Sequence record: SRR31156797_21105
Length of the DNA: 43,000 nucleotides
Reading direction: 5' to 3' (one strand)
The notes beneath the pieces were generated by a model. The model saw only the letters and a list, made by a program, of their open reading frames with translations. It was not told where the DNA came from and did no database searches. Positions 2 through 28,439 of the stretch are shown here, one piece after another. The position numbers and the translations under genes are program-made. The first letter of the stretch is position 1; every line of letters starts with the position of its first letter.

Positions 2-1219
2 GAGGTTATGGCTGGTATGCAAAGCGATATAAGAAGCGATGTATACTCTGCGGGATTGCTTTTTTATGAAATGATAACAGGCAAGAACTTGCTTATACCG
101 CCATTTCAGATAAGACCGGTAAAAGAGTCTAGTGAATATTTGCCTGAATACCTTGATGATATTATAGAAAAGGCAACCGATTTCAATCAAACCAATAGAT
201 ATAAAACTGTAGAAGAATTTATTAATGCAATTGAATATCCTGAAATAAAGAAAAAACGACTAAACATATCCTCAAAGCTAATTATAGGTATAGCCATAGG
301 CTTTGTTGTGTTTATAGTAATTGGAACTACTTTCTATTTATTATCAAAACGAGATTTGGCTGTAAAGAACACCCTGGTTCCAACTGATGATATAGTGAAT
401 ACAATCACAGGCAATAATACTGAAAACATAGTGGATACGATTGCCAGCAATGGTACTGATGAGAGTGAAGTTATTGATAAAGCACAATACGAAGTGATTC
501 TGGAACTTGATTTTGAAGATAAATCTGATGCATCATGGTTTGAAATAGCAGGAGATAATGCAGATAGCATCGTAGCAGAAGATTGTATTGATAATGGCAT
601 ATTCACTTTAAAAGGACAAGTCGTATTAAAACAAGCTATTCAAATGGGAAAGTTTGTTCATATAAAAGCAACTTCACCTGATTTTGATAAAACAGGTTCA
701 ATGTTTATGCTGGATTTGACAAGCAGCAGTTGGAGTATGAACTCGGAGTTACAAATGTTTAGATTCTATTTTGAGAATAACAGACCTTTATCCTTTGGTG
801 TGAATAAACATACTGAATATGCATCTGTTAGTCAGATTGAAACAGCTATGATGATGAGAAGCAATATGACAGTAGACATTATTGTCTGGCTGAATGATGA
901 AGATAATTCAATTAGATATATTATTTGTGATTCAGTTGACAAAAGTGATATATGTCTTATGGGAGTAACGCTGGATGACAGCTTGATAAGTGAAACATGG
1001 ATGATAAATATTGAACTGGATACCGGGGTTTGGAATGGAGCTGTTACAGTAGAAGAACTATATACTGACATTGATTTTCTTAATGTTATATCTGGTTCGT
1101 TTACAGCGTATCTAGATGAAAATATCCCATCATATGCATTAAGGAAAGATAGTATAGAGAAATTCATCACTAACTCTGTTCCAAAAATGAGTGAGCTTAA
1201 TTATATGAAGTATGATTAG
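2..1219 (+). CDS. Transmembrane Hanks-type Ser/Thr protein kinase, 5'-truncated by the window edge (kinase C-lobe, one TM, large ectodomain)
   Basis: Frame is open from base 2 (E-V-M-A-G, probably the end of the APE motif). Subdomain IX SDVYSAGLLFYEMITG and subdomain XI '..NRYKTVEEF' are present, then TM LIIGIAIGFVVFIVIGTTFYLL and an acidic beta-rich ectodomain. Confidence 0.88.
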   Translation, partial: EVMAGMQSDIRSDVYSAGLLFYEMITGKNLLIPPFQIRPVKESSEYLPEYLDDIIEKATDFNQTNRYKTVEEFINAIEYPEIKKKRLNISSKLIIGIAIGFVVFIVIGTTFYLLSKRDLAVKNTLVPTDDIVNTITGNNTENIVDTIASNGTDESEVIDKAQYEVILELDFEDKSDASWFEIAGDNADSIVAEDCIDNGIFTLKGQVVLKQAIQMGKFVHIKATSPDFDKTGSMFMLDLTSSSWSMNSELQMFRFYFENNRPLSFGVNKHTEYASVSQIETAMMMRSNMTVDIIVWLNDEDNSIRYIICDSVDKSDICLMGVTLDDSLISETWMINIELDTGVWNGAVTVEELYTDIDFLNVISGSFTAYLDENIPSYALRKDSIEKFITNSVPKMSELNYMKYD

Positions 1220-5374: not shown

Positions 5375-6064
5375 TTATTGTGTTATAGTCTCACCATCGT
5401 GTTTTAGCATTGTAATAGCTTTGACACTTTCAATATTCTTTATTTGAGATGCAAATTCACTATCATTTTTTACATTTGAGAGTTCAATAACAAGTTCAAT
5501 ATCATCATTGAACATACTTCTGCTCATTATTTGGAAATGCCTTGCTTTTTCTTTTATATATTTCATTAATACTTCTTCAGCCTTCACATCATTAAATTTG
5601 ACTACCAGAACTTGAGGAGCCTTCTTTAATGGTATCAATTGATATAGAGTTATGCCTATTGCAATTATTAGGCAGCTAACTATTGCCAAGAGGTACAAAC
5701 CAGCACCAGTTATTATTCCTATCGAAATGGACCAGAACATGAATAAAAGGTCTATTGGATTTTTTATAGCCGTCCTAAAGCGCACAATTGAAAGGGCTCC
5801 TACCATACCTAATGATATAACAATATTTGATTGTACTGCCAAAACAATAGCACAAGTAACCACTGAAACCATGCACATTGCTAGCACATACCCTTTTGAA
5901 TACGGAATATCTTTGACAGTAAATCTGTATACAAAAAACATAAAGAATGACAAGAGCAGTGACAAACAAAGAACAAAAATCATCATTTCTATTGTGATTT
6001 CTTTCAAATAGCCCTCAACAAATGTTTTTTTAAACATATCAGTAAATCTAATCATTTCATCCAA
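5375..6064 (-). CDS. DUF4956 family membrane protein (copy 1)
   Basis: Signature SLGMVGALSIVRFRTAIKNPIDL; several TM helices then a soluble ACT-like C-terminal domain; directly after a VTC-domain gene. Confidence 0.88.
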   Translation of the reverse strand: MDEMIRFTDMFKKTFVEGYLKEITIEMMIFVLCLSLLLSFFMFFVYRFTVKDIPYSKGYVLAMCMVSVVTCAIVLAVQSNIVISLGMVGALSIVRFRTAIKNPIDLLFMFWSISIGIITGAGLYLLAIVSCLIIAIGITLYQLIPLKKAPQVLVVKFNDVKAEEVLMKYIKEKARHFQIMSRSMFNDDIELVIELSNVKNDSEFASQIKNIESVKAITMLKHDGETITQ

Positions 6065-6068
6065 AATT

Positions 6069-6770
6069 CTATCCTCCGTGTTTTAACTTTGTTTTTCCCT
6101 GTGTCGCCATACGACACAATAAATATTTAGAGCAAGCCTGATTCTTGCCATAATCCATCTGTAATAACTGCCTTATATACTCTGGCAGAAATGTATCATA
6201 TTTTATCTCAAGTATACTTTCGTTTGCACTTAGTACAGGAACATGCGAGGAATCCGGCTCAAAGAAAGAGAGATTCACTGGTGCTGATAATTGTGTATCA
6301 AAAGTTATCCGTACATTCCCAGCTTCACATACAAATGCGTTCCTGATATAATTAACAATCTGCATAGGTCTGAGCAGTCTTGTCTTTTTCAAAAGAAGTA
6401 GTTCATTAATAAGTTTATTATCGCAGAAATCTTCAAACATATTATCACAATTTAGTAGTGTTTCAGCCGCTTGTTTTGAAATTAATGTTCTATTCTTATA
6501 GCAATACTCACCTATTTTGATTTTTTTCTCTAGAAAAATGGTATTAATATCATTATTATATGTACGCAGTCTAAACTTTCCACGCTCATATTTTCCAGCC
6601 AATTTATCGTAAAGCCCACTATCTGTTACATCATCAAAGTATATACTTTTGATCAAATATCCGTTTTCATCATCAAACCTATCCCTTTCAAGAATAGGGT
6701 TAAGCCTGTGAAAGAGCTTTATCCTAGTTCTTTCATCTATAATATATTTATGTTCATGACGATACTTCAT
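6069..6770 (-). CDS. Polyphosphate-polymerase (VTC / CYTH-TTM) domain protein (copy 1)
   Basis: RHEHKY, IKSIYFD, KFRLRTY, FLEKKIK, YIRNAF, VRITFD, ILEIKY and SKY motifs. Confidence 0.9.
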   Translation of the reverse strand: MKYRHEHKYIIDERTRIKLFHRLNPILERDRFDDENGYLIKSIYFDDVTDSGLYDKLAGKYERGKFRLRTYNNDINTIFLEKKIKIGEYCYKNRTLISKQAAETLLNCDNMFEDFCDNKLINELLLLKKTRLLRPMQIVNYIRNAFVCEAGNVRITFDTQLSAPVNLSFFEPDSSHVPVLSANESILEIKYDTFLPEYIRQLLQMDYGKNQACSKYLLCRMATQGKTKLKHGG

Positions 6771-6787
6771 CTCTACATATCCTATCT

Positions 6788-8464
6788 TTATCCGAGTATT
6801 TCACCATCTAAATAATCAAGACGACTCTCTAACCATTGTGAAATATATTCTAGTTCTGATTCAACATCTAACGGACGGAAGGCAATACCTAGAATTTCAG
6901 CATTTTCCATGGTTTCATTCCACCTACTAGCCTCACGTCTTAATGCACCAGATGAATCAAGTAAATCATAAGCAGTATAAAACCTTGACATTAGCACGCT
7001 CAATGAAAACTCATCTTGACGCAGTTGTTTCCATTTTTCTACTAATGCATCATTGAAAGAATCAGTGTCTTGTTCCATAAGACGATCATATAGACCGTTT
7101 GTTATTATTCCAGTCTCCGGAGTAATTTCATTTTGCCAGCTGCGTCCAACACAATCATCCAAATCCCATGCAGTAATAAATATTTTGCGTTTTTCTGCTG
7201 TCTCGGTATCTGCTACAGAGTAAAATATATTTTTACCCATATTACCGGTTCCGCCTACAAGATTTATAAACAGATAATATTCTATAAGATTATCATAATC
7301 TATCATTGCAGATATTTTTTCATTAAAGCTCTCATCGTCACCTGCTGTTGTGAGATAAGCAAGCTCATAAAAAGGTTCCCAGTCATATATGTACATTTTT
7401 TCATTTGTATTTGGATATGTAATAACCATTCCCCCCCAGCTTTCTTCAGCCATTACTGGAGTCTCAGGTATGTCCCTAAACGAGTTTATCATCTTACCGT
7501 TATATGTCATTGATATGCCTTTGTATAGTAAACCTCCACCTAAGCCATTATCATTCAGAGCTAAGCCCAATTGCTTACCGTCAATTCTTTCATGTAAAAA
7601 ATATATACCCTTATATTCATTATCTAAATAAAGTTCAATGTACATTCCTCTGCACCCATTGACAACATTTTCATCATAATACACAGTACTAATATCGCAC
7701 CATAAATCCATCAATACGTTTTTACGCATTCTTGAATAATCATTATATGCACCCTCAAGTACCCAATCGTCATCTTTTCTTAGATTAGGAAAGGAAACAT
7801 CGACTTTATTAATGTCTGAATCAATGAATTTGAGATTATAATTCTTCTTATCATACTGTAATGATGTATTTCCACGTACCTCAACTCTTGCTAAGTTAGT
7901 CTCTTGAGTAGTATATTCTGGGTTATTTGGATCATAAAAATAAAACTGATTAACTGAAGTGTTAATAGATAGACATGTCATAATTGGCAGCTTTGTAAAT
8001 TTAAGGTAGTAATTCTCATTCACACCATTGTTAGAAATTGTAATTTCATAATTTTTTTCAAAGGACACCTCAACGCCTGTATCCTTACTGATTTCTATAC
8101 CATCCAGTAAAATGCAGTCTGATTCATTGTAAAATTCGATATCTAATGTAACTATATCGCCTTGTAATATATCCTCAGACAGCGGCATCAGAAACGTATT
8201 CGATATACTGTCATACGCACATATAGTTTCGTTTATTTTCAATGTTTGATCTTCGATATTAATTTCTTCAAAAGATGACATTCCTTCTTCTACTTCATCA
8301 AGTTTCAACTCGTAAGAATAATCGTGTTTTTCTAAAAAAGCAGCAACTACATTTTCGGGTCCAAGCTGACTTTTCATTATTGAATATCCCAAGAAGATGC
8401 ATGCTAAAATGACAATAAATATAAGTAAACGCAATGTTCTCTTTATGTTAATTCTCTCTGTCAT
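6788..8464 (-). CDS. CotH-family kinase with N-terminal membrane anchor (copy 1)
   Basis: RGNTSLQYDKKNY, DDDWVLEGAYNDYSRMR, YLDNEYKGIYFLHE, GNMGKN and AWDLD motifs; TM LLIFIVILACIFLGYSIM. Start placed at ATG 8464 (ORF track starts at 8512). Confidence 0.88.
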   Translation of the reverse strand: MTERINIKRTLRLLIFIVILACIFLGYSIMKSQLGPENVVAAFLEKHDYSYELKLDEVEEGMSSFEEINIEDQTLKINETICAYDSISNTFLMPLSEDILQGDIVTLDIEFYNESDCILLDGIEISKDTGVEVSFEKNYEITISNNGVNENYYLKFTKLPIMTCLSINTSVNQFYFYDPNNPEYTTQETNLARVEVRGNTSLQYDKKNYNLKFIDSDINKVDVSFPNLRKDDDWVLEGAYNDYSRMRKNVLMDLWCDISTVYYDENVVNGCRGMYIELYLDNEYKGIYFLHERIDGKQLGLALNDNGLGGGLLYKGISMTYNGKMINSFRDIPETPVMAEESWGGMVITYPNTNEKMYIYDWEPFYELAYLTTAGDDESFNEKISAMIDYDNLIEYYLFINLVGGTGNMGKNIFYSVADTETAEKRKIFITAWDLDDCVGRSWQNEITPETGIITNGLYDRLMEQDTDSFNDALVEKWKQLRQDEFSLSVLMSRFYTAYDLLDSSGALRREASRWNETMENAEILGIAFRPLDVESELEYISQWLESRLDYLDGEILG

Positions 8465-8472
8465 ATCTATAT

Positions 8473-8501
8473 AATATACTATATGCTTTTTCTTATTGCA
8501 A
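8473..8501 (-). promoter_or_regulatory. Putative sigma-A promoter of CotH cassette 1
   Basis: TTGCAA-17 bp-TATATT on the minus strand, 8 nt upstream of ATG 8464. Confidence 0.5.
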
Positions 8502-8636
8502 TACTTAAGCAAACATATTGGTGATTTTACCTTTGCTCTTACTTATAAGGATTAAAAAGAATTCAGAATATTAGATAATAAAGTTTTTATCTGTAAATTG
8601 AAAACCCAAAATTGATATTTTACTAAGGAGGGCAAT

Positions 8637-10667
8637 GTGCATTCTAGCATAAAAACACATTTCCCCAATATTAAAATGATTATAATTTATTTAGAATGTT
8701 TGTTGGAATTCAAAATATCGACTTATAATACTATATATGTTATATGTATATGTTGTACGTATTGCGTATTTACAATAAAAATATATTGTGATAAACTAAA
8801 AGGATTGTTAGGAAAACAAACTGGTATGAAGAGTATTTTGCCCAAAATGTCTAATAAATCTCGGAATAGAGGATATTTTATACTACTAATATTGTTTCAA
8901 GTATTAGTAGTATTTATGTACTTCTTTCTAAAGTGGAAACTAGGAATAAGTGACATTGAAGTATATAAAGTTATACAAGATAATGATTTCCCACGGATTG
9001 AGATTGAAGGATACAAAAACTTTGATGGAGAGGGCAAAAGTGCTGCAAATATCAAATACTATAATCAAGGTCTTGTTTTTGAAGAAACAGTAGATGTTTC
9101 TATACAAGGTGGCACATCAATATATTATCCTAAAAAAAATTACAATATAGATATTCTTATAGATGGTTCTACAATTAGTTCAGCTGATGAAAGCAGCATT
9201 CAATTCGGCGATTGGTACAAAATGGACAGATACTGTCTAAAAGCAAATTATGTAGATTTCAGCATGGCGAGAAATACTGTTGCTTCAAAGCTATGGGGGG
9301 ATATAGTAGAAAGCCGTGACAATATTAACCCTAATTTAGAGGAGATAGTTAATTACGGTGCTGTAGATGGTTTTCCTGTAGCGTTGTATTTGAACGGAAA
9401 ATACAAAGGTATTTATAATGTAAACACTTCAAAGGACTGTTTGTTTTACAATATGCAGAAAGGCAGTATGCAGGCTGTATTATTTGGAGATAATTTAGAT
9501 TCTGTAACAGTTCAATTAAAGGAAACATCCGATTCATCCCCACCAAATGGCGGTTGGCAGTTAGTATATAATTCTGAAGATAATACTGAATGGATAACCG
9601 AGAGCTTTAATCGGCTTATTGCTTTTAATTTGAACAATGATGATGAAGCATTTAAGCAGGGCATTAGTAAATATTTAGATGTAGAAGCAGCTATTGATTA
9701 TTTAATATACTATCAGTTTTTTAGTCTAGTGGATAATCAATACAAGAACATGATGTGGGTCACATATGATGGAACACAATGGATTCCATCTGCATATGAT
9801 TTGGATAAATCATTTGGTTTAAATTTAGATGGTATAGGATTCTTTAACCTCGATGTACTAATGCCATACTATGACAGCAAGGAACAGATCTTCTATGCCA
9901 ACAGCGAGAATGCATTATGGAACAGATTACTCAATACTCACAGAGAGGAAATAGCTGATAGGTATTTTGAACTGAGAGAGGGAGCGTTAAGTATTGAGAA
10001 TATTTCAGCAAGATTTAATGAGTTTAATGGTGAAATTCCTCAGGAACTGTTTAGGATTGAGGCAAAGCTATGGCCTGGAATCCCAAGCCTGAACATTTCT
10101 GATATTAGTACTATAATGGATTATCAAATAAAAAGAGCAGAAGTAATGGATAATTTCTATTTATTATATGCTCAGGAAGATGGTTTCCAATCAAGCGGAT
10201 GTGAAGAATTTACAAAATATACTGTAACTATTGAGTGCCCTCTTCGAGAGAGTGATTTAACATTTAAAATGGATTATAACCAAGTATTTGATATAAATGA
10301 AATAATGAAAAGCCCTTCTGCTGAATATGAGTTTGATAAGCTTGTATATAAAGACAGCGACGTGGAATTTGCAGATGGCACAGCTATTACACAGGATACT
10401 GAGCTGGAAATCATATGGAAAGCTGCGGAGGTAAAGCAGCAAATAGTTGTAGAAGCTCCAGAACCAGCAGTTGAGAAATCTTTAAAAGAAAAGACTGATG
10501 ATTTCGTTGTTAAAGTTAAGCAATTTATTAGTAAAGTCAAAACATTTATCATGGAGACGAAGTCAGAATCGTTCTTTGTTTCAATATTTGTTATTATATT
10601 TATAATCCTTATTGTTACATATAAAATCAGAGTAGGAAAGGATAAGCACGGTAATAACTGCGGGTAA
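8637..10667 (+). CDS. CotH-family kinase with N- and C-terminal TM helices and a degenerate InlB-B-repeat-like domain (copy 2); start is 8637, 8826 or 8847
   Basis: QGGTSIYYPKKNY, YCLKANYVDFSMARN, DGFPVALYLNGKYKGIY, LVDNQYKN and AYDLDKSFG motifs; TM segments GYFILLILFQVLVVFMYFFL and FFVSIFVIIFIILIVTY. AAGGAGG precedes GTG 8637, but a TTTACA-17-TAAACT promoter-like site at 8769-8797 favours the later starts. Confidence 0.88.
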   Translation: MHSSIKTHFPNIKMIIIYLECLLEFKISTYNTIYVICICCTYCVFTIKIYCDKLKGLLGKQTGMKSILPKMSNKSRNRGYFILLILFQVLVVFMYFFLKWKLGISDIEVYKVIQDNDFPRIEIEGYKNFDGEGKSAANIKYYNQGLVFEETVDVSIQGGTSIYYPKKNYNIDILIDGSTISSADESSIQFGDWYKMDRYCLKANYVDFSMARNTVASKLWGDIVESRDNINPNLEEIVNYGAVDGFPVALYLNGKYKGIYNVNTSKDCLFYNMQKGSMQAVLFGDNLDSVTVQLKETSDSSPPNGGWQLVYNSEDNTEWITESFNRLIAFNLNNDDEAFKQGISKYLDVEAAIDYLIYYQFFSLVDNQYKNMMWVTYDGTQWIPSAYDLDKSFGLNLDGIGFFNLDVLMPYYDSKEQIFYANSENALWNRLLNTHREEIADRYFELREGALSIENISARFNEFNGEIPQELFRIEAKLWPGIPSLNISDISTIMDYQIKRAEVMDNFYLLYAQEDGFQSSGCEEFTKYTVTIECPLRESDLTFKMDYNQVFDINEIMKSPSAEYEFDKLVYKDSDVEFADGTAITQDTELEIIWKAAEVKQQIVVEAPEPAVEKSLKEKTDDFVVKVKQFISKVKTFIMETKSESFFVSIFVIIFIILIVTYKIRVGKDKHGNNCG

Positions 10668-10671
10668 ACGC

Positions 10672-11364
10672 ATGTATAGAAACGAACTAAAATATATATG
10701 TTCGATAGCTCAATCAGAAATACTGAAAATTCGTCTGAAGGCAATAGCAAAGCCTGATATGCATTCCAACTCAAATGGGATGTATAATGTGCGTAGCATG
10801 TATTTTGATGACTTAAAGAACTCAAGCTTCTATGAAAATGAAAGCGGTACTGATCCCAGAGAAAAATATAGAATAAGAATATATGACTGTTCAAAGAAGA
10901 TAAATCTGGAGCTAAAGTCCAAAGTGAATACAAAGACTCAAAAGCGAGTTACCCCAATAGGCATGGATGATTACAATCTTTTACGAGCTTCCAAGCCGGT
11001 TGAGACAGATGATAGTACATCGCCGTTATTACGCAGAATGTCTACAGATATACAGAATAGAATGCTGCGGCCGGTAGTAATTGTTGATTATAATAGAGCA
11101 GCATATACCTATAGTGTAGGAAATGTTAGAATTACCTTTGATACAAATATATCGTCATCTAATTCGTTTGATAAGTTCTTTGATAAGGATATACAAAAAC
11201 GCAGTATTTTACCTACAGGATATAGCATACTTGAAGTGAAATATGATAATTTCATTCCAGATTTTATTAAAAATACTTTACAAACTGATAGTTTAATCAA
11301 TACATCATTCTCAAAATTTTACTTATGTAGAAAATACAATATGGCTGGAGGCTTATTAATATGA
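10672..11364 (+). CDS. Polyphosphate-polymerase (VTC / CYTH-TTM) domain protein (copy 2)
   Basis: RNELKY, VRSMYFD, KYRIRIY, NLELKSK, YNRAAY, VRITFD, ILEVKY and FSKF motifs. Confidence 0.9.
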   Translation: MYRNELKYICSIAQSEILKIRLKAIAKPDMHSNSNGMYNVRSMYFDDLKNSSFYENESGTDPREKYRIRIYDCSKKINLELKSKVNTKTQKRVTPIGMDDYNLLRASKPVETDDSTSPLLRRMSTDIQNRMLRPVVIVDYNRAAYTYSVGNVRITFDTNISSSNSFDKFFDKDIQKRSILPTGYSILEVKYDNFIPDFIKNTLQTDSLINTSFSKFYLCRKYNMAGGLLI

Positions 11365-12035
11365 ATTACTCTGATATTTTCAGAAAAACTTTTATCGAAG
11401 GATATAGTGCGGCGAATATTACTGTTATAAATGTGGTACTTACTATTGCTATAACTTCGCTTATTGGACTGTATCTATTCTTTGTACATAGATTGATAAC
11501 CAGAAAGACCTTTTATGATAAGGCATTCAGTCTGTCATTACCTACATTAGCAATTATAACAGCAGCTATTATAATGACTATTCAGTCAAGCATTGTAATT
11601 TCGCTGGGTATGGTAGGTGCATTGTCTATTGTTAGATTCCGTACAGCGATTAAGAGTCCGATGGATTTGGTATTTCTGTTTTGGGCAATAGCCATAGGAA
11701 TTATCTGCGGTGCAGGTTTTGCAGAGATAGCAATAATTATTTCTGTATTTTTGACCGTGGGCATATTTTTGCTTGATCTTATTCCTGTTATCAGATCATC
11801 TCAGCTGCTTGTTGTAAATGCTGATAATTATGATGTTGAAGATGAGCTGATTGCTGTAATGAATAAATTGTGTAAGCATTATAAGATTAAATCTCGTAAT
11901 ATCTCTGAAGGCAATTTAGACATAATAGCAGAAGTGCGTGTGAAAGATGATAGAAAATTGGTTAAAGAGGTTTTTGAGATAAATGGCATAAAAAACGCTT
12001 CATTACTGACTCATGATGGAGAGGTTTCTTTTTAA
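11361..12035 (+). CDS. DUF4956 family membrane protein (copy 2)
   Basis: SLGMVGALSIVRFRTAIKSPMDL; ATGA overlap with the VTC gene and GGAGG RBS. Confidence 0.9.
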   Translation: MNYSDIFRKTFIEGYSAANITVINVVLTIAITSLIGLYLFFVHRLITRKTFYDKAFSLSLPTLAIITAAIIMTIQSSIVISLGMVGALSIVRFRTAIKSPMDLVFLFWAIAIGIICGAGFAEIAIIISVFLTVGIFLLDLIPVIRSSQLLVVNADNYDVEDELIAVMNKLCKHYKIKSRNISEGNLDIIAEVRVKDDRKLVKEVFEINGIKNASLLTHDGEVSF

Positions 12036-12709: not shown

Positions 12710-12784
12710 TGGCTGGGGCGGTAGGATTCGAACCTACGAATGCTGGAGTCAGAGTCCAGTGCCTTACCGCTTGGCGACGCCCCA
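12710..12784 (-). tRNA. tRNA-Gln, anticodon CTG, CCA encoded
   Basis: Minus strand reads TGGGGCGTCGCCAAGCGGTAAGGCACTGGACTCTGACTCCAGCATTCGTAGGTTCGAATCCTACCGCCCCAGCCA: cloverleaf, GTTCGAATC T-loop, anticodon loop CT-CTG-AC. Confidence 0.97.
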
Positions 12785-13895: not shown

Positions 13896-14043
13896 GAACT
13901 ATTACTTTTTGTATATGTATAGTGCTGTTATATGCAGTACTGTAAATATAAATAATGTGGTCGGTTTGTTTATGATTAACATAACAACAGGCTGTAAAAT
14001 TGATTAGAGAGTCTAACAACAAAACCCTAAGGAGAACATGCGC

Positions 14044-14604
14044 ATGAAAAAATTATTTAAAGTTACAACTAAGACTATCGTTGCAACTGGTCTAGGAGCA
14101 GCACTTTTTACGCTGCTGTTTATGTTTGTAAAAATACCATCTCCAGTACCAGAAACTAGTTTCCAAACTGCTTACGGCCTTTCAGGCATGTTTGCAACAT
14201 TATTCGGACCAATTTGCGGATTTTTAATTTCATTTATAGGACACGCATTATCTGACGCAATTCAGTATGGCTCACCATGGTGGAGCTGGGTACTTGCCAG
14301 TGGTATTTCTGGTTTTGTATTCGGTTTTGCATACAGAAAAGTACGTGCTAATGAAGGTGACTTCAAAGGCAAAGATATCTTAAGATACAATGTTATCCAA
14401 GTAGTAGGCAACATTATTGCATGGATTATTGTAGCTCCTTTATTAGATATAATCATTTATGCTGAACCAGTTAACTTGGTATTCACACAAGGCGCAATTG
14501 CTTGTGTTATGAATTCAATTAGTGCTGGTGTAATTGGTACTTTACTGCTAATTGCATATGCTGCAACAAGAACCAAAAAAGGTAGCTTATCAAAAGAAGA
14601 ATAA
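14044..14604 (+). CDS. ECF transporter S component, UPF0397/MtsT-like
   Basis: TKTIVATGLGAALF, IPSPVPET, LFGPICGFLISFIGHALSDAIQYGSPWWSW and KKGSLSKE; AAGGAG RBS; upstream of ECF A-A' and T genes. Confidence 0.85.
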   Translation: MKKLFKVTTKTIVATGLGAALFTLLFMFVKIPSPVPETSFQTAYGLSGMFATLFGPICGFLISFIGHALSDAIQYGSPWWSWVLASGISGFVFGFAYRKVRANEGDFKGKDILRYNVIQVVGNIIAWIIVAPLLDIIIYAEPVNLVFTQGAIACVMNSISAGVIGTLLLIAYAATRTKKGSLSKEE

Positions 14605-14626
14605 TCTAGTATAAGTGAGGAAAATC

Positions 14627-16336
14627 ATGAACGATAAACCGATTATTGCATTCAAAGACTTCTCTTTTCAATATTATAGTCAACAAGAACCAACATTGAA
14701 TGACATTAACCTGGAGATATTCTCAGGTGAAAAAATACTTATTATAGGACCAAGCGGCAGTGGGAAAAGTACACTTGGACACTGCATTAATGGACTAATT
14801 CCTTTTTATTATAAGGGCAGTATATCGGGCTCTTTAAAAGTAAATGGTATGAAGACCCAAGATCAGGATATTTTTAAGCTGTCAAAAATAATTGGTACGG
14901 TATTGCAGGATACTGATGGTCAATTTGTGGGATTATCTGTAGGTGAAGATATAGCATTTTCCATGGAAAATGACTGTGTTCCTCTAGAAGAAATGAGACC
15001 GCGAGTTAAAGTTATTTCTGAAATGGTAGACATGGATAAATGGCTGTCGTCCTCTCCATTTGAACTTTCCGGCGGTCAAAAGCAAAGAACTGCACTTGCA
15101 GGAGTAATGGTAGATGATGTTGATGTACTGTTATTTGACGAACCGCTTGCAAACCTTGATCCTGCAACTGGAAAACAAGCAATTGAAATAATCCATGATA
15201 TCAGCAAAGATCAGGACAAAACTATTATAATAATTGAGCATCGTTTAGAGGATGTATTGTATTGTGATATTGATAGAATAATTGTGATAAATGATGGAAA
15301 GATACTTGCGGATATGAATGCTCATGAGCTGGTTGCTTCGGATGTTTTGAAGGATAACGGAATACGAGAACCCCTGTATGTCACAGCATTAAAATATGCA
15401 GGAATTGATGTAAATGAGTCATTGCAGGCAGGGCATATAAACACATTAAAACTAAATGATAGTGAAAAGGCAAAAGTTAGAGAATGGCATAATTCAATTC
15501 TGCGACAGAGCCCTGATAGAGATAAAAACGCAATATTACAAATGAAAAACATTAATTTCAGTTATGAAAAAGATAAACAAATATTAAAGGAAGTTAATAT
15601 TGATATTTTAGAGGGCGAAATGCTGGCTTTAGTAGGAAGAAATGGAGCAGGCAAATCTACAATCGCAAAGCTTTTATGCGGCTTTGAAAAACAAGATAGT
15701 GGTACTATATACTATAATGGAATTGATATCGCAGATAAAAGCATTAAAGAACGTGCGGAGATGATAGGCTATGTAATGCAGAATCCTAACCAGATGATTT
15801 CGCAAAACCTGATATATGATGAGATAGCACTTGGGTTAAGGCTGAGAAATGCAGATGAAGAAGAAGTTGATAAAACGGTGAAAAAGGTACTGAAGATATG
15901 CGGTCTACTGCCTTTTAGGAAATGGCCGATTTCAGCACTCAGCTATGGTCAGAAAAAGCGTGTTACTATCGCTTCTATACTGGCACTGCATCCTAAAGTA
16001 ATTATATTAGATGAACCTACTGCAGGACAAGATTATAAGCATTACACTGAGATAATGGAATTCTTGGTGGAAATAAATAAAACAGGTATAACCGTATTGA
16101 TGATTACTCATGACATGCATTTGATGCAGGAATATACGCCAAGAGCAGTAGTGCTGTCGGATGGAGTAGTGATAGAAAATAATGCTGCATCAGTAGTGCT
16201 TACAGAACATAATGTAATAGATGCTGCTAATTTAAAGGAAACATCCTTGTATCAGCTGGCACAGATAGTAGGAATAGCAGATGAAACTGATTTTGTTCAA
16301 GGATTTATTGACTATGAAAGGCGGTTAAGAGCATGA
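14627..16336 (+). CDS. ECF transporter fused double ATPase (A-A', MtsU-like)
   Basis: Two ABC domains: GPSGSGKST / LSGGQKQR / DEPLANLD and GRNGAGKST / LSYGQKKR / DEPTAGQD; GIREPLY linker. Confidence 0.93.
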   Translation: MNDKPIIAFKDFSFQYYSQQEPTLNDINLEIFSGEKILIIGPSGSGKSTLGHCINGLIPFYYKGSISGSLKVNGMKTQDQDIFKLSKIIGTVLQDTDGQFVGLSVGEDIAFSMENDCVPLEEMRPRVKVISEMVDMDKWLSSSPFELSGGQKQRTALAGVMVDDVDVLLFDEPLANLDPATGKQAIEIIHDISKDQDKTIIIIEHRLEDVLYCDIDRIIVINDGKILADMNAHELVASDVLKDNGIREPLYVTALKYAGIDVNESLQAGHINTLKLNDSEKAKVREWHNSILRQSPDRDKNAILQMKNINFSYEKDKQILKEVNIDILEGEMLALVGRNGAGKSTIAKLLCGFEKQDSGTIYYNGIDIADKSIKERAEMIGYVMQNPNQMISQNLIYDEIALGLRLRNADEEEVDKTVKKVLKICGLLPFRKWPISALSYGQKKRVTIASILALHPKVIILDEPTAGQDYKHYTEIMEFLVEINKTGITVLMITHDMHLMQEYTPRAVVLSDGVVIENNAASVVLTEHNVIDAANLKETSLYQLAQIVGIADETDFVQGFIDYERRLRA

Positions 16337-17166
16337 AATCTTCTTTATTCTCTGCACAAAAGCTGGATACGCCGATTCATAATCTTTCTGGTCTTACGAA
16401 ATTGCTTTGCTTTTTGCTTCTGACAGGAGCTGTGATGTTTTCATATGATCTGAGAGTAATCCTTGTTATTATGGTATTTTCGTTTTCCATGCTTCGCTTG
16501 GCGGAAATTAAATTTTCACAAATTAAGGTAATGGTGATTTATGTTTTAGTTTTCTTGCTAGTTAATGCAGTGCTCACCTTCTTTTTCTCACCAAACTATG
16601 GTACAGATGTTTATGGTACTAGAACGGAATTGTTCAAAATCTTTGGTCCATATACTGTAACATCAGAGACCTTATTCTTTATAATAACAAAGTTTGCAAA
16701 ATATGCATCTGTCATCCCACTTGGCATGATATTCTTTTTAACCACTGACCCTAGTGAGCTTGCTGCTTCAATGTCTGGAATAGGACTTCATTACAAAGCA
16801 TCTTATTCTCTTGCTTTGACTCTTCGCTATTTTCCAGAAGTTCAGAGGGAATATCGGGATATATCTCAGGCACAGCAGGCAAGGGGTTTGGAAATGTCAA
16901 AAAAGGCTAAGTTATGGGATAGATTTAAGCGAGCAATTTCTATTATCTTGCCTTTAATTTTGTCCACAATGGATAGAATAGACACAATAACAAATGCAAT
17001 GGATTTGAGAGGCTTTGGAAAAAATAAAAAGAGAACTTGGTATAGGAAAAGGAAACTAAAAAAGAATGATTATATTGCACTTGGTATTTCAATAATCATT
17101 TTGCTGTGTACCATTGCAGTTTCTGTATTTATAAATCACAGTAGATTCTATAATCCGTTTATTTAA
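16333..17166 (+). CDS. ecfT: ECF transporter T component
   Basis: TM helices plus the two Arg motifs AQQARG and AMDLRGF; ATGA overlap. Confidence 0.92.
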   Translation: MKSSLFSAQKLDTPIHNLSGLTKLLCFLLLTGAVMFSYDLRVILVIMVFSFSMLRLAEIKFSQIKVMVIYVLVFLLVNAVLTFFFSPNYGTDVYGTRTELFKIFGPYTVTSETLFFIITKFAKYASVIPLGMIFFLTTDPSELAASMSGIGLHYKASYSLALTLRYFPEVQREYRDISQAQQARGLEMSKKAKLWDRFKRAISIILPLILSTMDRIDTITNAMDLRGFGKNKKRTWYRKRKLKKNDYIALGISIIILLCTIAVSVFINHSRFYNPFI

Positions 17167-17189: not shown

Positions 17190-18035
17190 GTGAAACAATT
17201 AATAGTATTTTTGACTGACTTCACTTACAAAGAGGGTGCTATATGTGCAATGTATGGAGTAGTAAAAAGTGTAGATAGAGATTTAGATATAATAGATGGT
17301 ACCCATGAGCTGCCTCAGTATGATACTTGGAGTGCATCTTATAGAATATATCAATCTATGAAATTCTGGCCTAAAGGCACAGTTTTTGTTTTGGTTGTAG
17401 ACCCTGGTGTCGGAACACCAAGAAAAGCATCGGTTGCTAAAACTAAAGACGGTTATTATGTTGTGTCTCCGGATAATGGCTCATTAACTCATTTGAAACT
17501 TAAAGTAGGCATAGAAGAAATAAGAGAGATAGATGAGACTATAAACAGGCTTAAAGGTAAGGATACTGAGGAGGTTGCAATATTTCATGGACGTGACCTA
17601 TTTGGATATTGTGGTGCAAGGCTTGCTAGTGGTGTAATAACATTTGAACAAGTTGGACCATCTTATCCCGTTAAAGACATCATTGAACATGAGATTCTAG
17701 AGCCAATAGTAGAAGATGGCAAAGTGAAAGGGATAATAGAAATTCCGGATCCGAACTTTGGAAATTCATGGACCAATATTCCTCTTAGTGTATTTAAATC
17801 TGTAGGATTTGAGTACGGAGATATGCTGGATGTTGTGATAAAAAATAAAGATGAGGTTATATTTGAGGAGAAATTACTGTTCCATCAATCATTTGGATAT
17901 GCAGAAAAGGGACAGCCAATGATTTATAATAATGAGCTTATGCATATAGCTTTTGCAGTAAACCAGGGCAGCTTTTTTGGTAATTATAATATTGGGTATG
18001 GTGCTGATTGGACCGTTGAATTTTCAAAGAATTAA
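17190..18035 (+). CDS. DUF62 / SAM hydroxide adenosyltransferase (SAM hydrolase) family, paralog 1
   Basis: FLTDF, VVDPGVGTPR, PDNG, FHGRD, FGNSWTN and AVNQG motifs; AAGGAGG RBS, GTG start. Confidence 0.92.
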   Translation: MKQLIVFLTDFTYKEGAICAMYGVVKSVDRDLDIIDGTHELPQYDTWSASYRIYQSMKFWPKGTVFVLVVDPGVGTPRKASVAKTKDGYYVVSPDNGSLTHLKLKVGIEEIREIDETINRLKGKDTEEVAIFHGRDLFGYCGARLASGVITFEQVGPSYPVKDIIEHEILEPIVEDGKVKGIIEIPDPNFGNSWTNIPLSVFKSVGFEYGDMLDVVIKNKDEVIFEEKLLFHQSFGYAEKGQPMIYNNELMHIAFAVNQGSFFGNYNIGYGADWTVEFSKN

Positions 18036-18073
18036 CTTTTTGATTTTCATACAGTGATATAAGGAGAGATATA

Positions 18074-18919
18074 ATGAAAAAATTACTTGTTTTTCAATCT
18101 GATTTCGGATTAGTCGATGGTGCTGTTGCTGCCATGTACGGTGTTGCATTTGAAGTAGATGATACTATACGTGCTTTTAATTTGACTCATGACATACCGC
18201 AATACAACATTTTTGAGGCTTCATACAGACTATTTCAAGCTATAGAATATTGGCCTGAAGACACAGTATTTGTTTCTGTAGTTGACCCAGGAGTGGGGAC
18301 GAAGCGCAAAAGTGTCGTTGCTAAAACTGTAGATGGGAAATATGTTGTTACTCCAGATAATGGCACACTGACGCACTTAAAAAAATATGTAGGAATTTCT
18401 GAAATTCGTGAAATAGAAGAAAGCAAACACAGAAGAAAAAACACTCAGCATTCATATACATTCCATGGACGTGATGTATATGCTTATACCGGAGCCAAAC
18501 TGGCATCAAGAACAATCAAATTCGAAGATGTTGGAGAAGAGTTATCTGTAGAAAGAATTATCGAGTTGGAAACCGGCATAGTTGAAAAGAAAGAGAACAG
18601 TATAAAGGGCAGTATCGATATTTTGGATGTTCGCTTCGGATCGCTTTGGACAAATATATCAAGAGAAGACTTTTTGGATATTGGGTTTGAATTTGGTGAA
18701 AGTGTGGAAGTAATTATTAAGGACGGCCAAAGAATGGTTTATAATAATCGTGTAAAATTTGGCAGATCATTTGCGGATGTACACACTAGTGAGCAGATAG
18801 TTTATGTAAACTCATTATATAGAGTTGCTATTGCAATTAATCAAGGTAATTTTGCTAAGGCTTATAATATTGGCACAGGTACTCAATGGGCAGTAGAATT
18901 CAAAAAGCTAATAGACTAA
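18074..18919 (+). CDS. DUF62 / SAM hydroxide adenosyltransferase (SAM hydrolase) family, paralog 2
   Basis: QSDFGLVDG, VVDPGVGTKR, PDNG, TFHGRD, FGSLWTN and AINQG motifs; AAGGAG RBS. Confidence 0.93.
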   Translation: MKKLLVFQSDFGLVDGAVAAMYGVAFEVDDTIRAFNLTHDIPQYNIFEASYRLFQAIEYWPEDTVFVSVVDPGVGTKRKSVVAKTVDGKYVVTPDNGTLTHLKKYVGISEIREIEESKHRRKNTQHSYTFHGRDVYAYTGAKLASRTIKFEDVGEELSVERIIELETGIVEKKENSIKGSIDILDVRFGSLWTNISREDFLDIGFEFGESVEVIIKDGQRMVYNNRVKFGRSFADVHTSEQIVYVNSLYRVAIAINQGNFAKAYNIGTGTQWAVEFKKLID

Positions 18920-22886: not shown

Positions 22887-24449
22887 ATGAAACATAATAT
22901 CAAAACAACACTGACGATTCTGTTAGTTGTTTGTATGCTGTTTAGTATGACAGCCTGCAACGGTAACAGTACATCCCCTGAAACTACCACTTCTGCTGAA
23001 GATGATAACCAAAGTGGTACACAGACAACTAAATCTGATTTGGTTATAGCCATCCCAGGTGAACCTAGCACGCTGGATCCGTATGCTCACTCTGTGTATT
23101 CAGCATTCATTCCTGTGACGCTTATCTTCGATACCTTGATTAAAAAGGATGAAAATGGAGAATTCCAGAGCAGTCTTGCAGAATCATGGGAGTTTACAGA
23201 TGAGACGACTGTTATATTTAACCTACGTGACGATGTCACATTCAGTAATGGTAACAAGTTTACGGCTGAAGACGTAAAATACACTCTTCAGGTAGCTAGT
23301 GAGAGTACTTTCTCTGGCAGCCTTTATGATTGCATTGATGTAGAAAATACTACAGTTGTTAGCGATTATGTAATTGAAGTTAAGCTTAAGTATGCATATG
23401 CTCCTCTTATGGATTTGCTTGCTTCTTTCCGTGGGGGTATTTTGGATCACATTTCTTATGAAGCGGATCCTGATGCTTATGGACATAACCCTGTCGGTAC
23501 TGGCCCTATGAAGTTAACCAACTGGGTTTCCGGCGATCGCTTTGAGCTTGAAGCCAATGAGAACTACTGGGGCGAAGCAACTGCGTTTAACAAATGTACA
23601 TTCCGTGTAATTGTAGAAGCTTCATCTCGTACAATTGAATTGGAAACAGGTGGCGTAGATATTGCAGTAGAGATACCGTTTTCAGATTGGTCTCGCCTCG
23701 AGGATGATTCGAATTTGGAGCTAGTGTCAGGACAAACAAATCTGCTATCATCTCTAGCATTTAACATGTCTATTGAACTATTCCAGGACGAACGAGTTCG
23801 TAAAGCACTGGCTTATGGATTAAATCTTGACGCATTGGTTCAAACTGTTTGGGAAGGCACTGCTGATGTTGCTGATAGCTTCTATGCTAAAAACCTGCTT
23901 GGCTATAAAACCGAGGGACCTATGGAATATGACGTAGAAAAAGCTAAGCAACTTCTGGCAGAAGCGGGATATCCAGATGGTTTTGATTTGGAATATACCA
24001 CATATCAGACTGCACTCAATCAGTCATTTGCAGAAGTTTTACAGAGTATGTGGAGCCAGATTGGTATAAATGTAAAAATTAATATAGTTGATCTTGCTAC
24101 TTTTATATCCATGAATAACAGTGGCGAATTGACTGTATCAAAGCTGACACCTTCCGTCGCAATTGCTGATCCTGCTGCTGCGTTGCTTCTGTGGCCAGTT
24201 GAGCGTACAATCTCTTTGCGTCACAACGATCAGAATATACAGGATTTTCTTGACGCTGGTTCATCAACATATGATACTGAAGAGCGTGTGAAAATATATA
24301 ATCAATTACAGGATTATTTGTATGAGAAAACATACACTGTACCGGTTGCTTACACGAAGTTCGCATTTGGCGCACAAAGCTATGTACAGGGATTTCCTTT
24401 TGAGCCAAGTCAAGTTCCAGATCTTACAAGCGTTTATTTTAGTGAGTAA
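22887..24449 (+). CDS. Family-5 (Opp/Dpp/Nik) ABC substrate-binding lipoprotein
   Basis: Lipobox SMTAC; LAESWE, LRDDVTFSNGNKFTAEDVKYT, PVGTGP and YDVEKAKQLLAEAGYPDG. Confidence 0.95.
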   Translation: MKHNIKTTLTILLVVCMLFSMTACNGNSTSPETTTSAEDDNQSGTQTTKSDLVIAIPGEPSTLDPYAHSVYSAFIPVTLIFDTLIKKDENGEFQSSLAESWEFTDETTVIFNLRDDVTFSNGNKFTAEDVKYTLQVASESTFSGSLYDCIDVENTTVVSDYVIEVKLKYAYAPLMDLLASFRGGILDHISYEADPDAYGHNPVGTGPMKLTNWVSGDRFELEANENYWGEATAFNKCTFRVIVEASSRTIELETGGVDIAVEIPFSDWSRLEDDSNLELVSGQTNLLSSLAFNMSIELFQDERVRKALAYGLNLDALVQTVWEGTADVADSFYAKNLLGYKTEGPMEYDVEKAKQLLAEAGYPDGFDLEYTTYQTALNQSFAEVLQSMWSQIGINVKINIVDLATFISMNNSGELTVSKLTPSVAIADPAAALLLWPVERTISLRHNDQNIQDFLDAGSSTYDTEERVKIYNQLQDYLYEKTYTVPVAYTKFAFGAQSYVQGFPFEPSQVPDLTSVYFSE

Positions 24450-24475
24450 CTTAATGACTTTACAATAATTCTAAC

Positions 24476-24519
24476 GGGATGCGGTTAATTTATACCGACA
24501 CCGTATCCCATAATTTTTT
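24476..24519 (+). terminator. Intercistronic stem-loop after the binding-protein gene (attenuator or mRNA stabiliser)
   Basis: GGGATGCGGT / ACCGTATCCC stem followed by a T run. Confidence 0.6.
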
Positions 24520-24567
24520 GTGGGGATATAAAAGTAATCTCCTCAATGCAGTAAGGAGCAAACAGCA

Positions 24568-25557
24568 ATGCTGAAATTTATTATAAAACGTATAATAATC
24601 ATGGTTCCCGTATTGCTTGGTGTTACGTTCATCATTTTTACTATGATGTACTTTACACCTGGTGATCCAGCTCGAATGTTGCTGGGTGATATGGCAACCG
24701 ATGAAGAAGTGGAAATAAAACGTGACGAGATGGGCCTGAATGATTCTTTTCTTGAACGCTATCTTTCCTATCTTGGCAATCTGGTTCAGGGGGATTTAGG
24801 TACATCCTATTCAACTAAGCAACCAGTTACCACTGAGATTGCAAATCGTTTGCCGGCTACAGTTAAACTAGCTGTTTTTAGCAGTTTGTTTGCTGTTGTA
24901 GTAGGTGTATCGATAGGTATTATATCTGCGGTTAAGCAATATTCACTGATTGATAACGTTTCGAGAATACTTGCACTGGTAGGTGTTACGCTGCCGAATT
25001 TCTGGCTAGCGTTACTACTGGTACTTATGTTTTCAGTAAATCTTGATTGGCTGCCTGCATCGGGTCTGTACGGTCCAAAATATTATATCATGCCAGTTAT
25101 TAGTATAAGTGCAGTTTCTCTTGCAACGTTTGCCCGTATGACACGATCCTCAATGCTAGAAGTTATTCGTCAGGATTTTATTCGTACTGCATTCGCTAAA
25201 GGACAAAAAGGAAACGTTATTATATTTAAACATGCATTACGCAACGCTCTTATTCCTATTATTACTGTTGTGGGAATTCAGTTTGCTACAGCACTGGGTG
25301 GGGCGGTTGTTAATGAGCAGGTCTTTGCTATACCAGGACTAGGAAAGCTAATGGTGGATGCTATCAAAGCACGTGATTATCCCATTGTACAGGGAGGAGT
25401 ATTGGTGATTGCGATGATGTTTAGCATTTTGAATCTTGGGATAGACCTTCTTTATGCATTTGTTGATCCGAGAATTAAATCACAGTATATAAAAACTAAA
25501 ACAAGAAAGTCAAGAGATACGAGTGATAGTGATACACAGAAGGCGGTGGAAGCATGA
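24568..25557 (+). CDS. Opp/Dpp ABC permease (DppB-like)
   Basis: PGDPA, GDLGTSY, RSSMLEVIRQDFIRTAFAKG, RDYPIVQG, DPRI. Confidence 0.95.
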   Translation: MLKFIIKRIIIMVPVLLGVTFIIFTMMYFTPGDPARMLLGDMATDEEVEIKRDEMGLNDSFLERYLSYLGNLVQGDLGTSYSTKQPVTTEIANRLPATVKLAVFSSLFAVVVGVSIGIISAVKQYSLIDNVSRILALVGVTLPNFWLALLLVLMFSVNLDWLPASGLYGPKYYIMPVISISAVSLATFARMTRSSMLEVIRQDFIRTAFAKGQKGNVIIFKHALRNALIPIITVVGIQFATALGGAVVNEQVFAIPGLGKLMVDAIKARDYPIVQGGVLVIAMMFSILNLGIDLLYAFVDPRIKSQYIKTKTRKSRDTSDSDTQKAVEA

Positions 25558-26438
25558 AATCTGCAGCAAAGGACAAGGAAACAAAGGTAATTAAAAAGCG
25601 AAGCCAAGGGATGGAAATATGGAAAAGGCTTAGGAGAAACAGGCTTGCAGTCATAGGTATGATTATTCTTTTGATGATTGTGCTACTAGCCATTTTTGCT
25701 GAGCAGATAGCTCCGTATCCTTATGATTTGCAGGATTATAGTGCCACGTTTCAAAGACCGTCGGCTCAGCATTTGTTCGGCACGGACAATTATGGTCGTG
25801 ACATTTTTAGTCGTGTGATTTTTGGTACACGTACCTCTTTGCAAATTGGGTTTATTTCACTGGGCGTTGGTGCGCTGGCTGGCTGTATAATTGGTGCGAT
25901 TGCTGGTTATTTTGGAGGTGTAGTGGATAGTGTTATTATGCGCTTTACTGATATTCTAATGGCTATACCGAGAATTGTGCTTGCTATAGCAATAGCAACG
26001 ACACTTGGATCAGGGCTTACGAATGCTGTAATTGCAGTTGCTATTAGTTCGATTCCCAATTTCGCTCGTGTTGTACGTGCGTCTACATTGACTGTGAAAG
26101 ATCAGGAATTTGTAGAGGCTGCACGCTGTATAGGAGCTAAGAGTCCGCATATAATTATGCGTCACATTCTTCCGAATGTTCTATCGCCAATAATTGTACA
26201 GGCTACTATTGGTGTGGGTACTGCTATTATACTTGCTGCTGCACTAAGCTTTCTCGGTTTAGGTGTACAGCCACCAACACCTGAGTGGGGTTCTATGCTA
26301 TCTGCAGCTCGTACATACATGCGTGACAATCAGTATATGGTTGCATTCCCAGGACTTGCAATTATGGTTACTGTACTTGCACTGAATCTTTTCGGTGATG
26401 GGTTACGTGACGCCCTTGATCCAAAGCTCAAGAAGTGA
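25554..26438 (+). CDS. Opp/Dpp ABC permease (DppC-like)
   Basis: HLFGTDNYGRDIFSR, EFVEAARCIGA, LSFLGLGVQPPTPEWG, GDGLRDALDP. Confidence 0.95.
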   Translation: MKSAAKDKETKVIKKRSQGMEIWKRLRRNRLAVIGMIILLMIVLLAIFAEQIAPYPYDLQDYSATFQRPSAQHLFGTDNYGRDIFSRVIFGTRTSLQIGFISLGVGALAGCIIGAIAGYFGGVVDSVIMRFTDILMAIPRIVLAIAIATTLGSGLTNAVIAVAISSIPNFARVVRASTLTVKDQEFVEAARCIGAKSPHIIMRHILPNVLSPIIVQATIGVGTAIILAAALSFLGLGVQPPTPEWGSMLSAARTYMRDNQYMVAFPGLAIMVTVLALNLFGDGLRDALDPKLKK

Positions 26439-26450
26439 GGAAGATATACT

Positions 26451-27437: not shown

Positions 27438-27448
27438 CGGAGGATACT

Positions 27449-28423: not shown

Positions 28424-28439
28424 AGTGGGAGGAAGCGAT

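Follow-up and report, generated by a model that had tools for sequence, protein, structure and literature searches.

Described relatives and two divergent trios

The yeast VTC complex couples polyphosphate (polyP) synthesis to a membrane channel: it is a 3:1:1 pentamer whose cationic channel is built of TM1 helices and lies beneath the Vtc4 tunnel (PMC9911596). Relatives of Vtc4 are also found beside CotH and DUF4956 proteins; the three genes are known as accessory members of pel operons in Gram-positive bacteria (Whitfield et al., 10.1101/768473), including S. intermedius SIR_1594-1592 (PMC12345266). Deleting the CotH or the DUF4956 homologue of S. intermedius altered Pel level and aggregation, and the authors of that work reported no trio outside pel loci (PMC12345266). 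For C. perfringens NELoc-2, the listed proteins include two VTC proteins, CotH and a HEAT protein (PMC11677781). Here we analyse two such trios in a 43,000-nucleotide stretch of DNA from sequence record SRR31156797_21105, hereafter the window, whose nearest relatives are uncultured Clostridia. An earlier note, made from the letters of this DNA, had hypothesised, for 8637..12035, a VTC-like machine that makes polyP and exports it to an extracellular CotH kinase. We found that VTC and DUF4956 form an obligate pair within a conserved three-gene unit, and we weigh below how far a role in polyP export can be attached to it.

ATP is scarce outside the membrane, and how bacteria power chemical reactions there is an open problem, as is the role of the many CotH proteins that do not serve sporulation. 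The module studied here is common in gut Clostridia. Its plus-strand copy comprises three co-directional open reading frames (ORFs) for CotH, VTC and DUF4956 at 8637-12035 (+), all scoring above the Pfam curated cut-offs. A second, mirror trio runs leftward on the minus strand (8512-5375); it has the same gene order, is divergently transcribed and has diverged considerably.

5375..6064, minus strand: paralogous DUF4956 protein with the same invariant motif (Pfam DUF4956; alignment)
6069..6770, minus strand: paralogous VTC protein (Pfam VTC 122.3 bits; alignment)
6788..8512, minus strand: paralogous CotH protein, membrane-anchored, probable pseudokinase (Pfam CotH 123.1 bits)
8513..8825, no strand assigned: divergent intergenic region between the trios, with AAGGAGG at 8625-8631, then GTG 8637; alternative CotH start ATG 8826
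8637..10667, plus strand: CotH-family kinase-fold protein (Pfam CotH 91.5 bits, E 9.4e-26); likely start 8826
10672..11364, plus strand: soluble VTC protein (Vtc4-like triphosphate tunnel), candidate polyP polymerase (Pfam VTC 127.1 bits, E 1.1e-36)
11361..12035, plus strand: DUF4956 membrane protein (Pfam DUF4956 E 8.1e-15); start overlaps the VTC stop

The families and coordinates that the earlier note had given for the plus-strand genes agree with the ORF list and with Pfam, and the ATGA that it had placed at the VTC/DUF4956 boundary is present at 11361-11364, where inspection of the sequence shows the plus-strand VTC stop overlapping the DUF4956 start. The note had also referred, under 8637..12035, to two CotH domains; a second CotH does exist, but it sits outside those coordinates, in the minus-strand trio. 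The distance is 4 nucleotides at the plus-strand CotH/VTC junction and from the minus-strand VTC stop to the DUF4956 start. Aligned with each other, the plus- and minus-strand paralogues are 22% (CotH), 36% (VTC) and 39% (DUF4956) identical. An Rfam search of the divergent intergenic region returned no family; promoter-like sites were not above shuffled sequence (57 versus 47.7 +/- 6.9), and 1 terminator-like site was found against 3.0 expected.

VTC, DUF4956 and CotH co-occur across loci and genomes

Using a VTC profile, we collected 80 related genome loci. DUF4956 adjoins VTC in 78 of these, the exceptions being L015 and L061, with the contig ending just after VTC, and CotH is present in 68, as detected with an iterated CotH model whose cluster representatives were confirmed by Pfam. 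We then considered whole-genome family searches of two phyla, that of genome G001 (201 genomes) and that of genome G003 (151 genomes; the second phylum). A search centred on genome G002 drew on the G001 phylum again and yielded nothing further. In the G001 phylum, 31 genomes have VTC; these and no others have DUF4956, and the copy numbers of the two agree. DUF4956 lies within about 2.3 kb of 36 of the 38 VTC matches there, downstream in 28 and upstream in 8, so that the adjacency survives rearrangement. CotH occurs in 27 genomes of this phylum, 24 of them shared with VTC, and two of the three CotH-only genomes carry the short spore-coat type of about 360 residues. The second phylum has VTC in 6 genomes, all six with DUF4956, and DUF4956 in 17, every one of which has CotH (18 genomes in all). 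Across both phyla, VTC without DUF4956 was found in 0 of 37 genomes, and CotH, identified with Pfam, is present in 41 of the 48 DUF4956 genomes. Control genomes with all three families were B. thetaiotaomicron, C. glutamicum and M. acetivorans; the B. subtilis control had CotH only.

These observations strongly support VTC and DUF4956 as a functional pair and the three genes as a conserved functional unit. DUF4956 is the hub of the module because every genome with VTC has it and nearly all genomes that have it also have CotH. The conservative yield of the analysis is thus a set of co-occurrence rules, namely that VTC is never found without DUF4956, and DUF4956 almost always with CotH and a polyP synthase, and these rules define a clean three-protein system around DUF4956. 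Where VTC is missing, CotH adjoins DUF4956 in four of the nine loci that we examined, and DUF4956 retains the RFR(S/T) core described below. CotH proteins of VTC-less spirochaete-type loci have lipoprotein-like signals and no membrane helices; contact within the membrane therefore cannot be the general link.

As a side observation, VTC-less loci of the second phylum encode signal-peptide proteins beside CotH and DUF4956 (L083:7260-8285(-), L089:4347-5417(-) and L081:3660-5339(+)). They are rich in beta-strand-like sequence, match no Pfam family and may represent an outer-membrane component of the module in diderms.

The trio is already known in print as the pel-operon accessory set, with the same three families in the same order. 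There, too, CotH is a predicted secreted protein, VTC is predicted in the cytoplasm, and DUF4956 is predicted to be a membrane protein that includes an ACT domain. The window trios differ in that they stand without pel genes and form a divergent pair in which one CotH is without the catalytic Asp. We found no pel-type families (pelDEADAFG) among the 31 other proteins scanned in the 43-kb window, and of 30 families that recur among the neighbours in the 80 loci, all scanned, none is pel-like. Recurring neighbours are those of a wall-glycopolymer pathway, not of pel: glycosyltransferase family 2 enzymes (34, 23, 19 and 12 loci), a Bac_transf priming transferase (27), LytR_cpsA_psr (23), GtrA (12), a purple-acid-phosphatase-like enzyme (12), a tetratricopeptide-repeat protein (12) and Wzt (10). 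The purple-acid-phosphatase-like metallophosphoesterase is divergent and upstream of the trio in its 12 loci (for example L021:6705-8123(-)); it may counteract the trio as a phosphatase or polyphosphatase of the surface.

VTC resembles the catalytic domain of yeast Vtc4

Both VTC proteins of the window match Pfam VTC (PF09359) far above the cut-off of 23, with 127.1 bits for the plus-strand and 122.3 bits for the minus-strand copy. The VTC domain spans residues 3-219 of 230 and is the only domain found on the protein, which has no SPX sensor domain. Neither copy has a hydrophobic segment, and among VTC ORFs of the related loci only 1 of 84 has one. Single-sequence searches against solved structures gave nothing significant, and profiles were needed; a profile of 33 VTC homologues matches the yeast Vtc4 catalytic domain 3g3q with an E-value of 2.8e-10. 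In this alignment, yeast Vtc4 R196, K200, R264, R266 and K281 (natural numbering of chain 8i6v_E) correspond to R3, K7, R67, R69 and K82, all of which are invariant in the 33 sequences. E188, S214 and K215 are also invariant, and we infer, by a mapping made outside the tool's alignment, that they are the equivalents of yeast E426 and S457/K458. The soluble VTC protein with preserved tunnel motifs that had been claimed for this locus is therefore borne out, both in the lack of a hydrophobic segment and in the invariance of the catalytic residues tested.

To compare folds, we used an AlphaFold2 model of the plus-strand VTC protein, which has a predicted local distance difference test (pLDDT) score of 90.2. 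The model has a closed beta-barrel tunnel fold, for which Foldseek returned Vtc4 as the best match (3g3r, E 3.9e-15, TMq 0.72; 3g3r and 3g3q together, E 4e-15 to 7e-15), with YgiF (7.4e-9) and CYTH enzymes ranking behind it, although still significant. From fold and residues, VTC is probably a cytoplasmic, Vtc4-type enzyme that makes polyP from ATP. The literature searched contained no assay of any bacterial VTC protein.

DUF4956 carries an invariant basic motif

The two DUF4956 proteins score 55.4 and 48.8 bits against Pfam DUF4956 (PF16316; cut-off 30.6). Both carry the basic RFRTAIK motif to which the earlier note had drawn attention, and R92, F93, R94, T95, A96 and K98 are invariant in 32 aligned homologues. 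The invariant core in this alignment reads SLGMVGALSIVRFRTA-K, followed by L..FW.I..GI..GAG, and an N-terminal helix with the pattern F..F.EG is kept across phyla. The structural model, which is of low confidence (pLDDT 64.8), consists of an N-terminal amphipathic helix, five membrane helices and a C-terminal domain of beta-alpha-beta-beta-alpha-beta layout. Charges of the loops favour a topology with the N terminus outside and the C terminus inside, which would place the RFR(T/S) loop and the C-terminal domain in the cytoplasm.

Fold matches of the model's C-terminal domain are to ACT domains, among them 2lqj (Z 9.4) and 7qa5 (Z 8.4), which are C-domains of MgtC. DUF4956 thus shares with the MgtC/SapB family an N-terminal multi-helix membrane domain and an ACT-like C-terminal domain, together with weak sequence matches. 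It differs from that family in that its similarity stays below thresholds (16 versus 31.4 bits for Pfam MgtC, PF02308; 17-27 versus 214 bits for NCBIfam NF007431), in its own invariant RFR(T/S) signature and in its own fixed partners, VTC and CotH. An ESM Atlas search returned DUF4956 clusters only.

Compared with the eukaryotic VTC complex, the bacterial pair has a tunnel domain of the same Pfam family, with the closest fold and the key basic residues kept, and its enzyme is obligately paired, in genomes, with a membrane protein that bears conserved basic residues, predicted at the cytoplasmic face. Unlike its eukaryotic counterpart, however, the bacterial enzyme is free and soluble, without SPX or a membrane domain of its own, and carries Glu in beta1 where yeast has Thr. 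Its partner is also of another kind (five helices plus ACT, MgtC-like, rather than the three-helix Vtc1/DUF202 type), the target compartment would be the cell exterior, and the set is tied to a CotH ecto-enzyme. In its proposed role, DUF4956 would be an analogue, not a homologue, of the yeast VTC channel.

Two candidate features were set aside. A C-terminal HDGE motif was considered as a mark of VTC partnership and was present in 75 of 81 Clostridial DUF4956 copies, but in only 2 of 8 VTC-adjacent copies of the second phylum. An apparent VTC-DUF4956 fusion (P0258) was rejected because it is a singleton whose junction is an Arg/Pro-rich stretch typical of frameshift read-through; the other longer VTC forms consist of VTC with disordered basic N-terminal extensions.

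CotH copies are predicted outside the membrane

Pfam CotH (PF08757; cut-off 23.8) matches the plus-strand copy with 91.5 bits and the minus-strand copy with 123.1 bits, and a profile of 46 CotH sequences matches B. cereus CotH 5jd9 (E 4.6e-8). In the plus-strand protein, basic N-terminal residues and a membrane helix precede the CotH ectodomain, which is followed by an additional C-terminal domain and then by another membrane helix with a basic tail (ORF residues 641-668). Both copies begin with basic residues and then an N-terminal hydrophobic helix. Such an N-terminal hydrophobic segment was found in 75 of 78 neighbouring CotH ORFs, of which 22 also have a C-terminal one. Consistent with the extracytoplasmic location proposed earlier, the CotH domain is predicted to lie outside the membrane with either start codon. 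ATG 8826 is the likely start, because the hydrophobic helix of homologues lies mostly within the first 5-30 residues. A strong AAGGAGG stands 5 nucleotides upstream of GTG 8637, and a start there would add 63 AT-rich-looking residues before ATG 8826; this may be an alternative CotH start or a leader element.

Mutating D228 or D251 of B. subtilis CotH inactivates the kinase (PMC7821199). The plus-strand CotH retains D303, N308, D325, D327 and K103, with D303 equivalent to the catalytic D228 and D325 to the metal-binding D251. The minus-strand CotH keeps the metal-binding Asp and has Gly at the catalytic position (G407, in GGTGNMGKN), where 73 of 78 neighbourhood CotH ORFs have Asp; because of this replacement it is probably a pseudokinase. 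Thus the plus-strand trio has a CotH with its predicted catalytic residues complete, and the minus-strand trio one that is probably inactive. The latter may be a pseudokinase partner of the active copy.

The window proteins belong to the same Pfam family as Bacillus spore-coat CotH, and the plus-strand copy keeps equivalents of the catalytic and metal-binding Asp. They differ in being membrane-anchored, predicted outside and about 600 residues long with extra domains, whereas the Bacillus protein has about 360 residues and resides in the mother-cell cytoplasm. Its partners cotB/cotG are not found at the window trios.

A proposed polyphosphate-based module and its alternatives

Considering these results together, we propose that each trio is a copy of a widespread prokaryotic module acting from the cytoplasm to the surface, a layered model to which we give somewhat less than an even chance as a whole. 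First, cytoplasmic VTC would polymerise polyP from ATP, which is the probable activity given above. Second, VTC would work only with DUF4956, whose RFR(T/S) loop and ACT domain would face the enzyme; we consider docking of the two proteins probable. Third, the DUF4956 hub would also serve the extracytoplasmic CotH, as their observed co-occurrence suggests. Fourth, and more tentatively, DUF4956 might pass polyP or phosphoryl units derived from it outward, driven by the inside-negative potential, since a conduit is the simplest link between a cytoplasmic source of phosphate polymer and a kinase-fold enzyme outside. Fifth, CotH might phosphorylate a polymer of the cell surface, probably a wall glycopolymer, with polyP as its donor or activator, although we regard this last step as doubtful.

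A surface enzyme that needs polyP leads to the expectation that CotH-DUF4956 genomes without VTC hold another polyP synthase. We found PPK1 (PF02503) in 10 of 11 such genomes; of the 134 genomes without DUF4956 in the same sample, 40 have it (Fisher p = 1e-4). The comparison ignores kinship, and the 11 genomes probably amount to only 4-5 lineages. VTC or PPK1 is present in 47 of the 48 DUF4956 genomes, and 21 of the 31 VTC genomes in the G001 phylum have no PPK1. The enrichment fits the polyP hypothesis and raises the mechanism slightly; PPK1 would supply polyP where VTC is missing.

Several points weigh against polyP export to CotH. Besides the kinship of the VTC-less genomes, PPK1 is never adjacent to the module in the 11 of them. 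These genomes, all in the G003 phylum, make up 11 of the 48 with DUF4956, so VTC is dispensable in some lineages, and since DUF4956 pairs with CotH even without VTC, VTC is not an indispensable first step. DUF4956 gave no match to the Vtc1/DUF202 channel even at E-values up to 10, a fold search with its low-confidence model gave no informative structure for the membrane part, and MgtC, the family that it recalls, is known as a regulator and not as a channel. A genuine VTC-DUF4956 fusion was absent among 19 longer VTC forms. The beta1 motif of bacterial VTC is R-x-E-x-K, with an invariant Glu5 where yeast has Thr198 (R-x-T-x-K). The ExExK motif is that of hydrolytic tunnel enzymes, and by its sequence the VTC motif is intermediate between those and Vtc4 and nearer to the former. 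No kinase-fold enzyme is known to use polyP, and one of the two CotH copies here has Gly in place of its catalytic Asp. Bacillus CotH uses ATP (PMC7821199). Finally, deletion of the VTC homologue of S. intermedius gave no aggregation or Pel phenotype (PMC12345266). Of the machine that the earlier note had envisaged, the obligate VTC-DUF4956 pair stands (37 of 37 genomes); its likeness to the eukaryotic complex does not extend to DUF4956, which is unrelated to Vtc1/DUF202, nor is VTC required in 11 of 48 genomes.

The alternative that survives best is that polyP stays intracellular. VTC would then make it at the inner face of the membrane, and DUF4956 would be an MgtC-like anchor or regulator, with its ACT domain in the place that the SPX sensor has in eukaryotes. 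CotH would be a separate ecto-kinase that draws on any ATP it can obtain, and the three genes would be co-inherited only through one envelope or phosphate programme. The weak MgtC similarity of DUF4956, the ACT fold that it has in common with MgtC C-domains and its want of channel homology all agree with this explanation, as does the silent VTC deletion in S. intermedius (PMC12345266), and authors working on that species suggested that polyP possibly remains cytoplasmic (preprint, 10.1101/2024.04.20.589940). It leaves unexplained why DUF4956 tracks CotH where VTC is absent (17 of 17 DUF4956 genomes of the second phylum) and what would tie the regulator of an enzyme in the cytoplasm to one outside in monoderms, diderms and an archaeon. 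We consider this alternative unlikely, although it deserves more weight than the other two.

CotH and DUF4956 could instead be the core machine, with DUF4956 exporting a small phosphodonor such as ATP, or activating or positioning CotH through its outward N-terminal helix, and with VTC or PPK1 only buffering phosphate or energy. This would account for the co-occurrence of the two families in 17 of 17 genomes, 11 of which have no VTC, for the adjacency of their genes in four of nine VTC-less loci and for the conservation of the F..F.EG helix across phyla. It would also fit the S. intermedius phenotypes, which came from CotH and DUF4956 deletions and not from that of VTC (PMC12345266). An accessory role does not readily explain why DUF4956 accompanies VTC in every case (37 of 37) and why the two are translationally coupled in this window, and the PPK1 enrichment points specifically to polyP; on balance we think this explanation improbable. 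It is very unlikely that bacterial VTC is a triphosphatase of the tunnel fold, or an enzyme that modifies nucleotides in another way, and that the trio is unrelated to polyP, as the invariant beta1 Glu reminiscent of ExExK, the significant matches to other tunnel enzymes and the lack of a bacterial VTC assay in the literature searched might suggest, because the family matched is Pfam VTC rather than CYTH, Vtc4 leads YgiF by six orders of magnitude in E-value and the polymerisation Lys/Arg residues are invariant.

We found no proposal of polyP export via DUF4956, or of polyP use by CotH, in the literature searched. If VTC and DUF4956 were a polyP synthase-exporter, they would add a third prokaryotic polyP route to PPK1 and PPK2. 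They would also be the first exporter of polyP in bacteria and would parallel the eukaryotic VTC channel without being homologous to it. An ecto-kinase that uses polyP would be a novel enzyme chemistry and would bear on the biology of the biofilm matrix and the cell wall. In its most far-reaching form, the layered model would make DUF4956 a polyanion translocase of a new class, and the CotH proteins, whether membrane-anchored or secreted, polyP-dependent phosphotransferases. Extracellular phosphorylation in bacteria and some archaea would then run on exported polyP instead of ATP, with polyP coming from a Vtc4-like enzyme or, where there is none, from PPK1, and would modify wall glycopolymers (such as Pel-type or LytR-CpsA-Psr-attached ones); we consider this broad version improbable.

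Surroundings of the trios

The rest of the window encodes a truncated Ser/Thr kinase, a HEAT-repeat protein, a leucine-rich-repeat (LRR) lipoprotein, a GntR regulator, an energy-coupling factor (ECF) transporter and others. The upstream HEAT, LRR and other window genes were considered as conserved partners and rejected because, except for two weak LRR matches, the 80 loci do not have them beside the trio. At 2-1219 (+), the window edge truncates a Hanks-type Ser/Thr kinase, of which the C-terminal end is present; after it come a membrane helix and an unassigned extracellular domain. A tRNA-Gln gene (anticodon CTG) is located at 12710-12784 (-), just downstream of the plus-strand trio. Two tandem S-adenosylmethionine hydroxide adenosyltransferase paralogues (17190-18919 (+)) directly follow the ECF transporter operon (14038-17166). 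The segment at 22887-29816 (+), which encodes an Opp-type ATP-binding cassette transporter and an MmgE/PrpD gene, has a G+C content of 0.40-0.42, compared with about 0.33 in the rest of the window, and may be acquired DNA.

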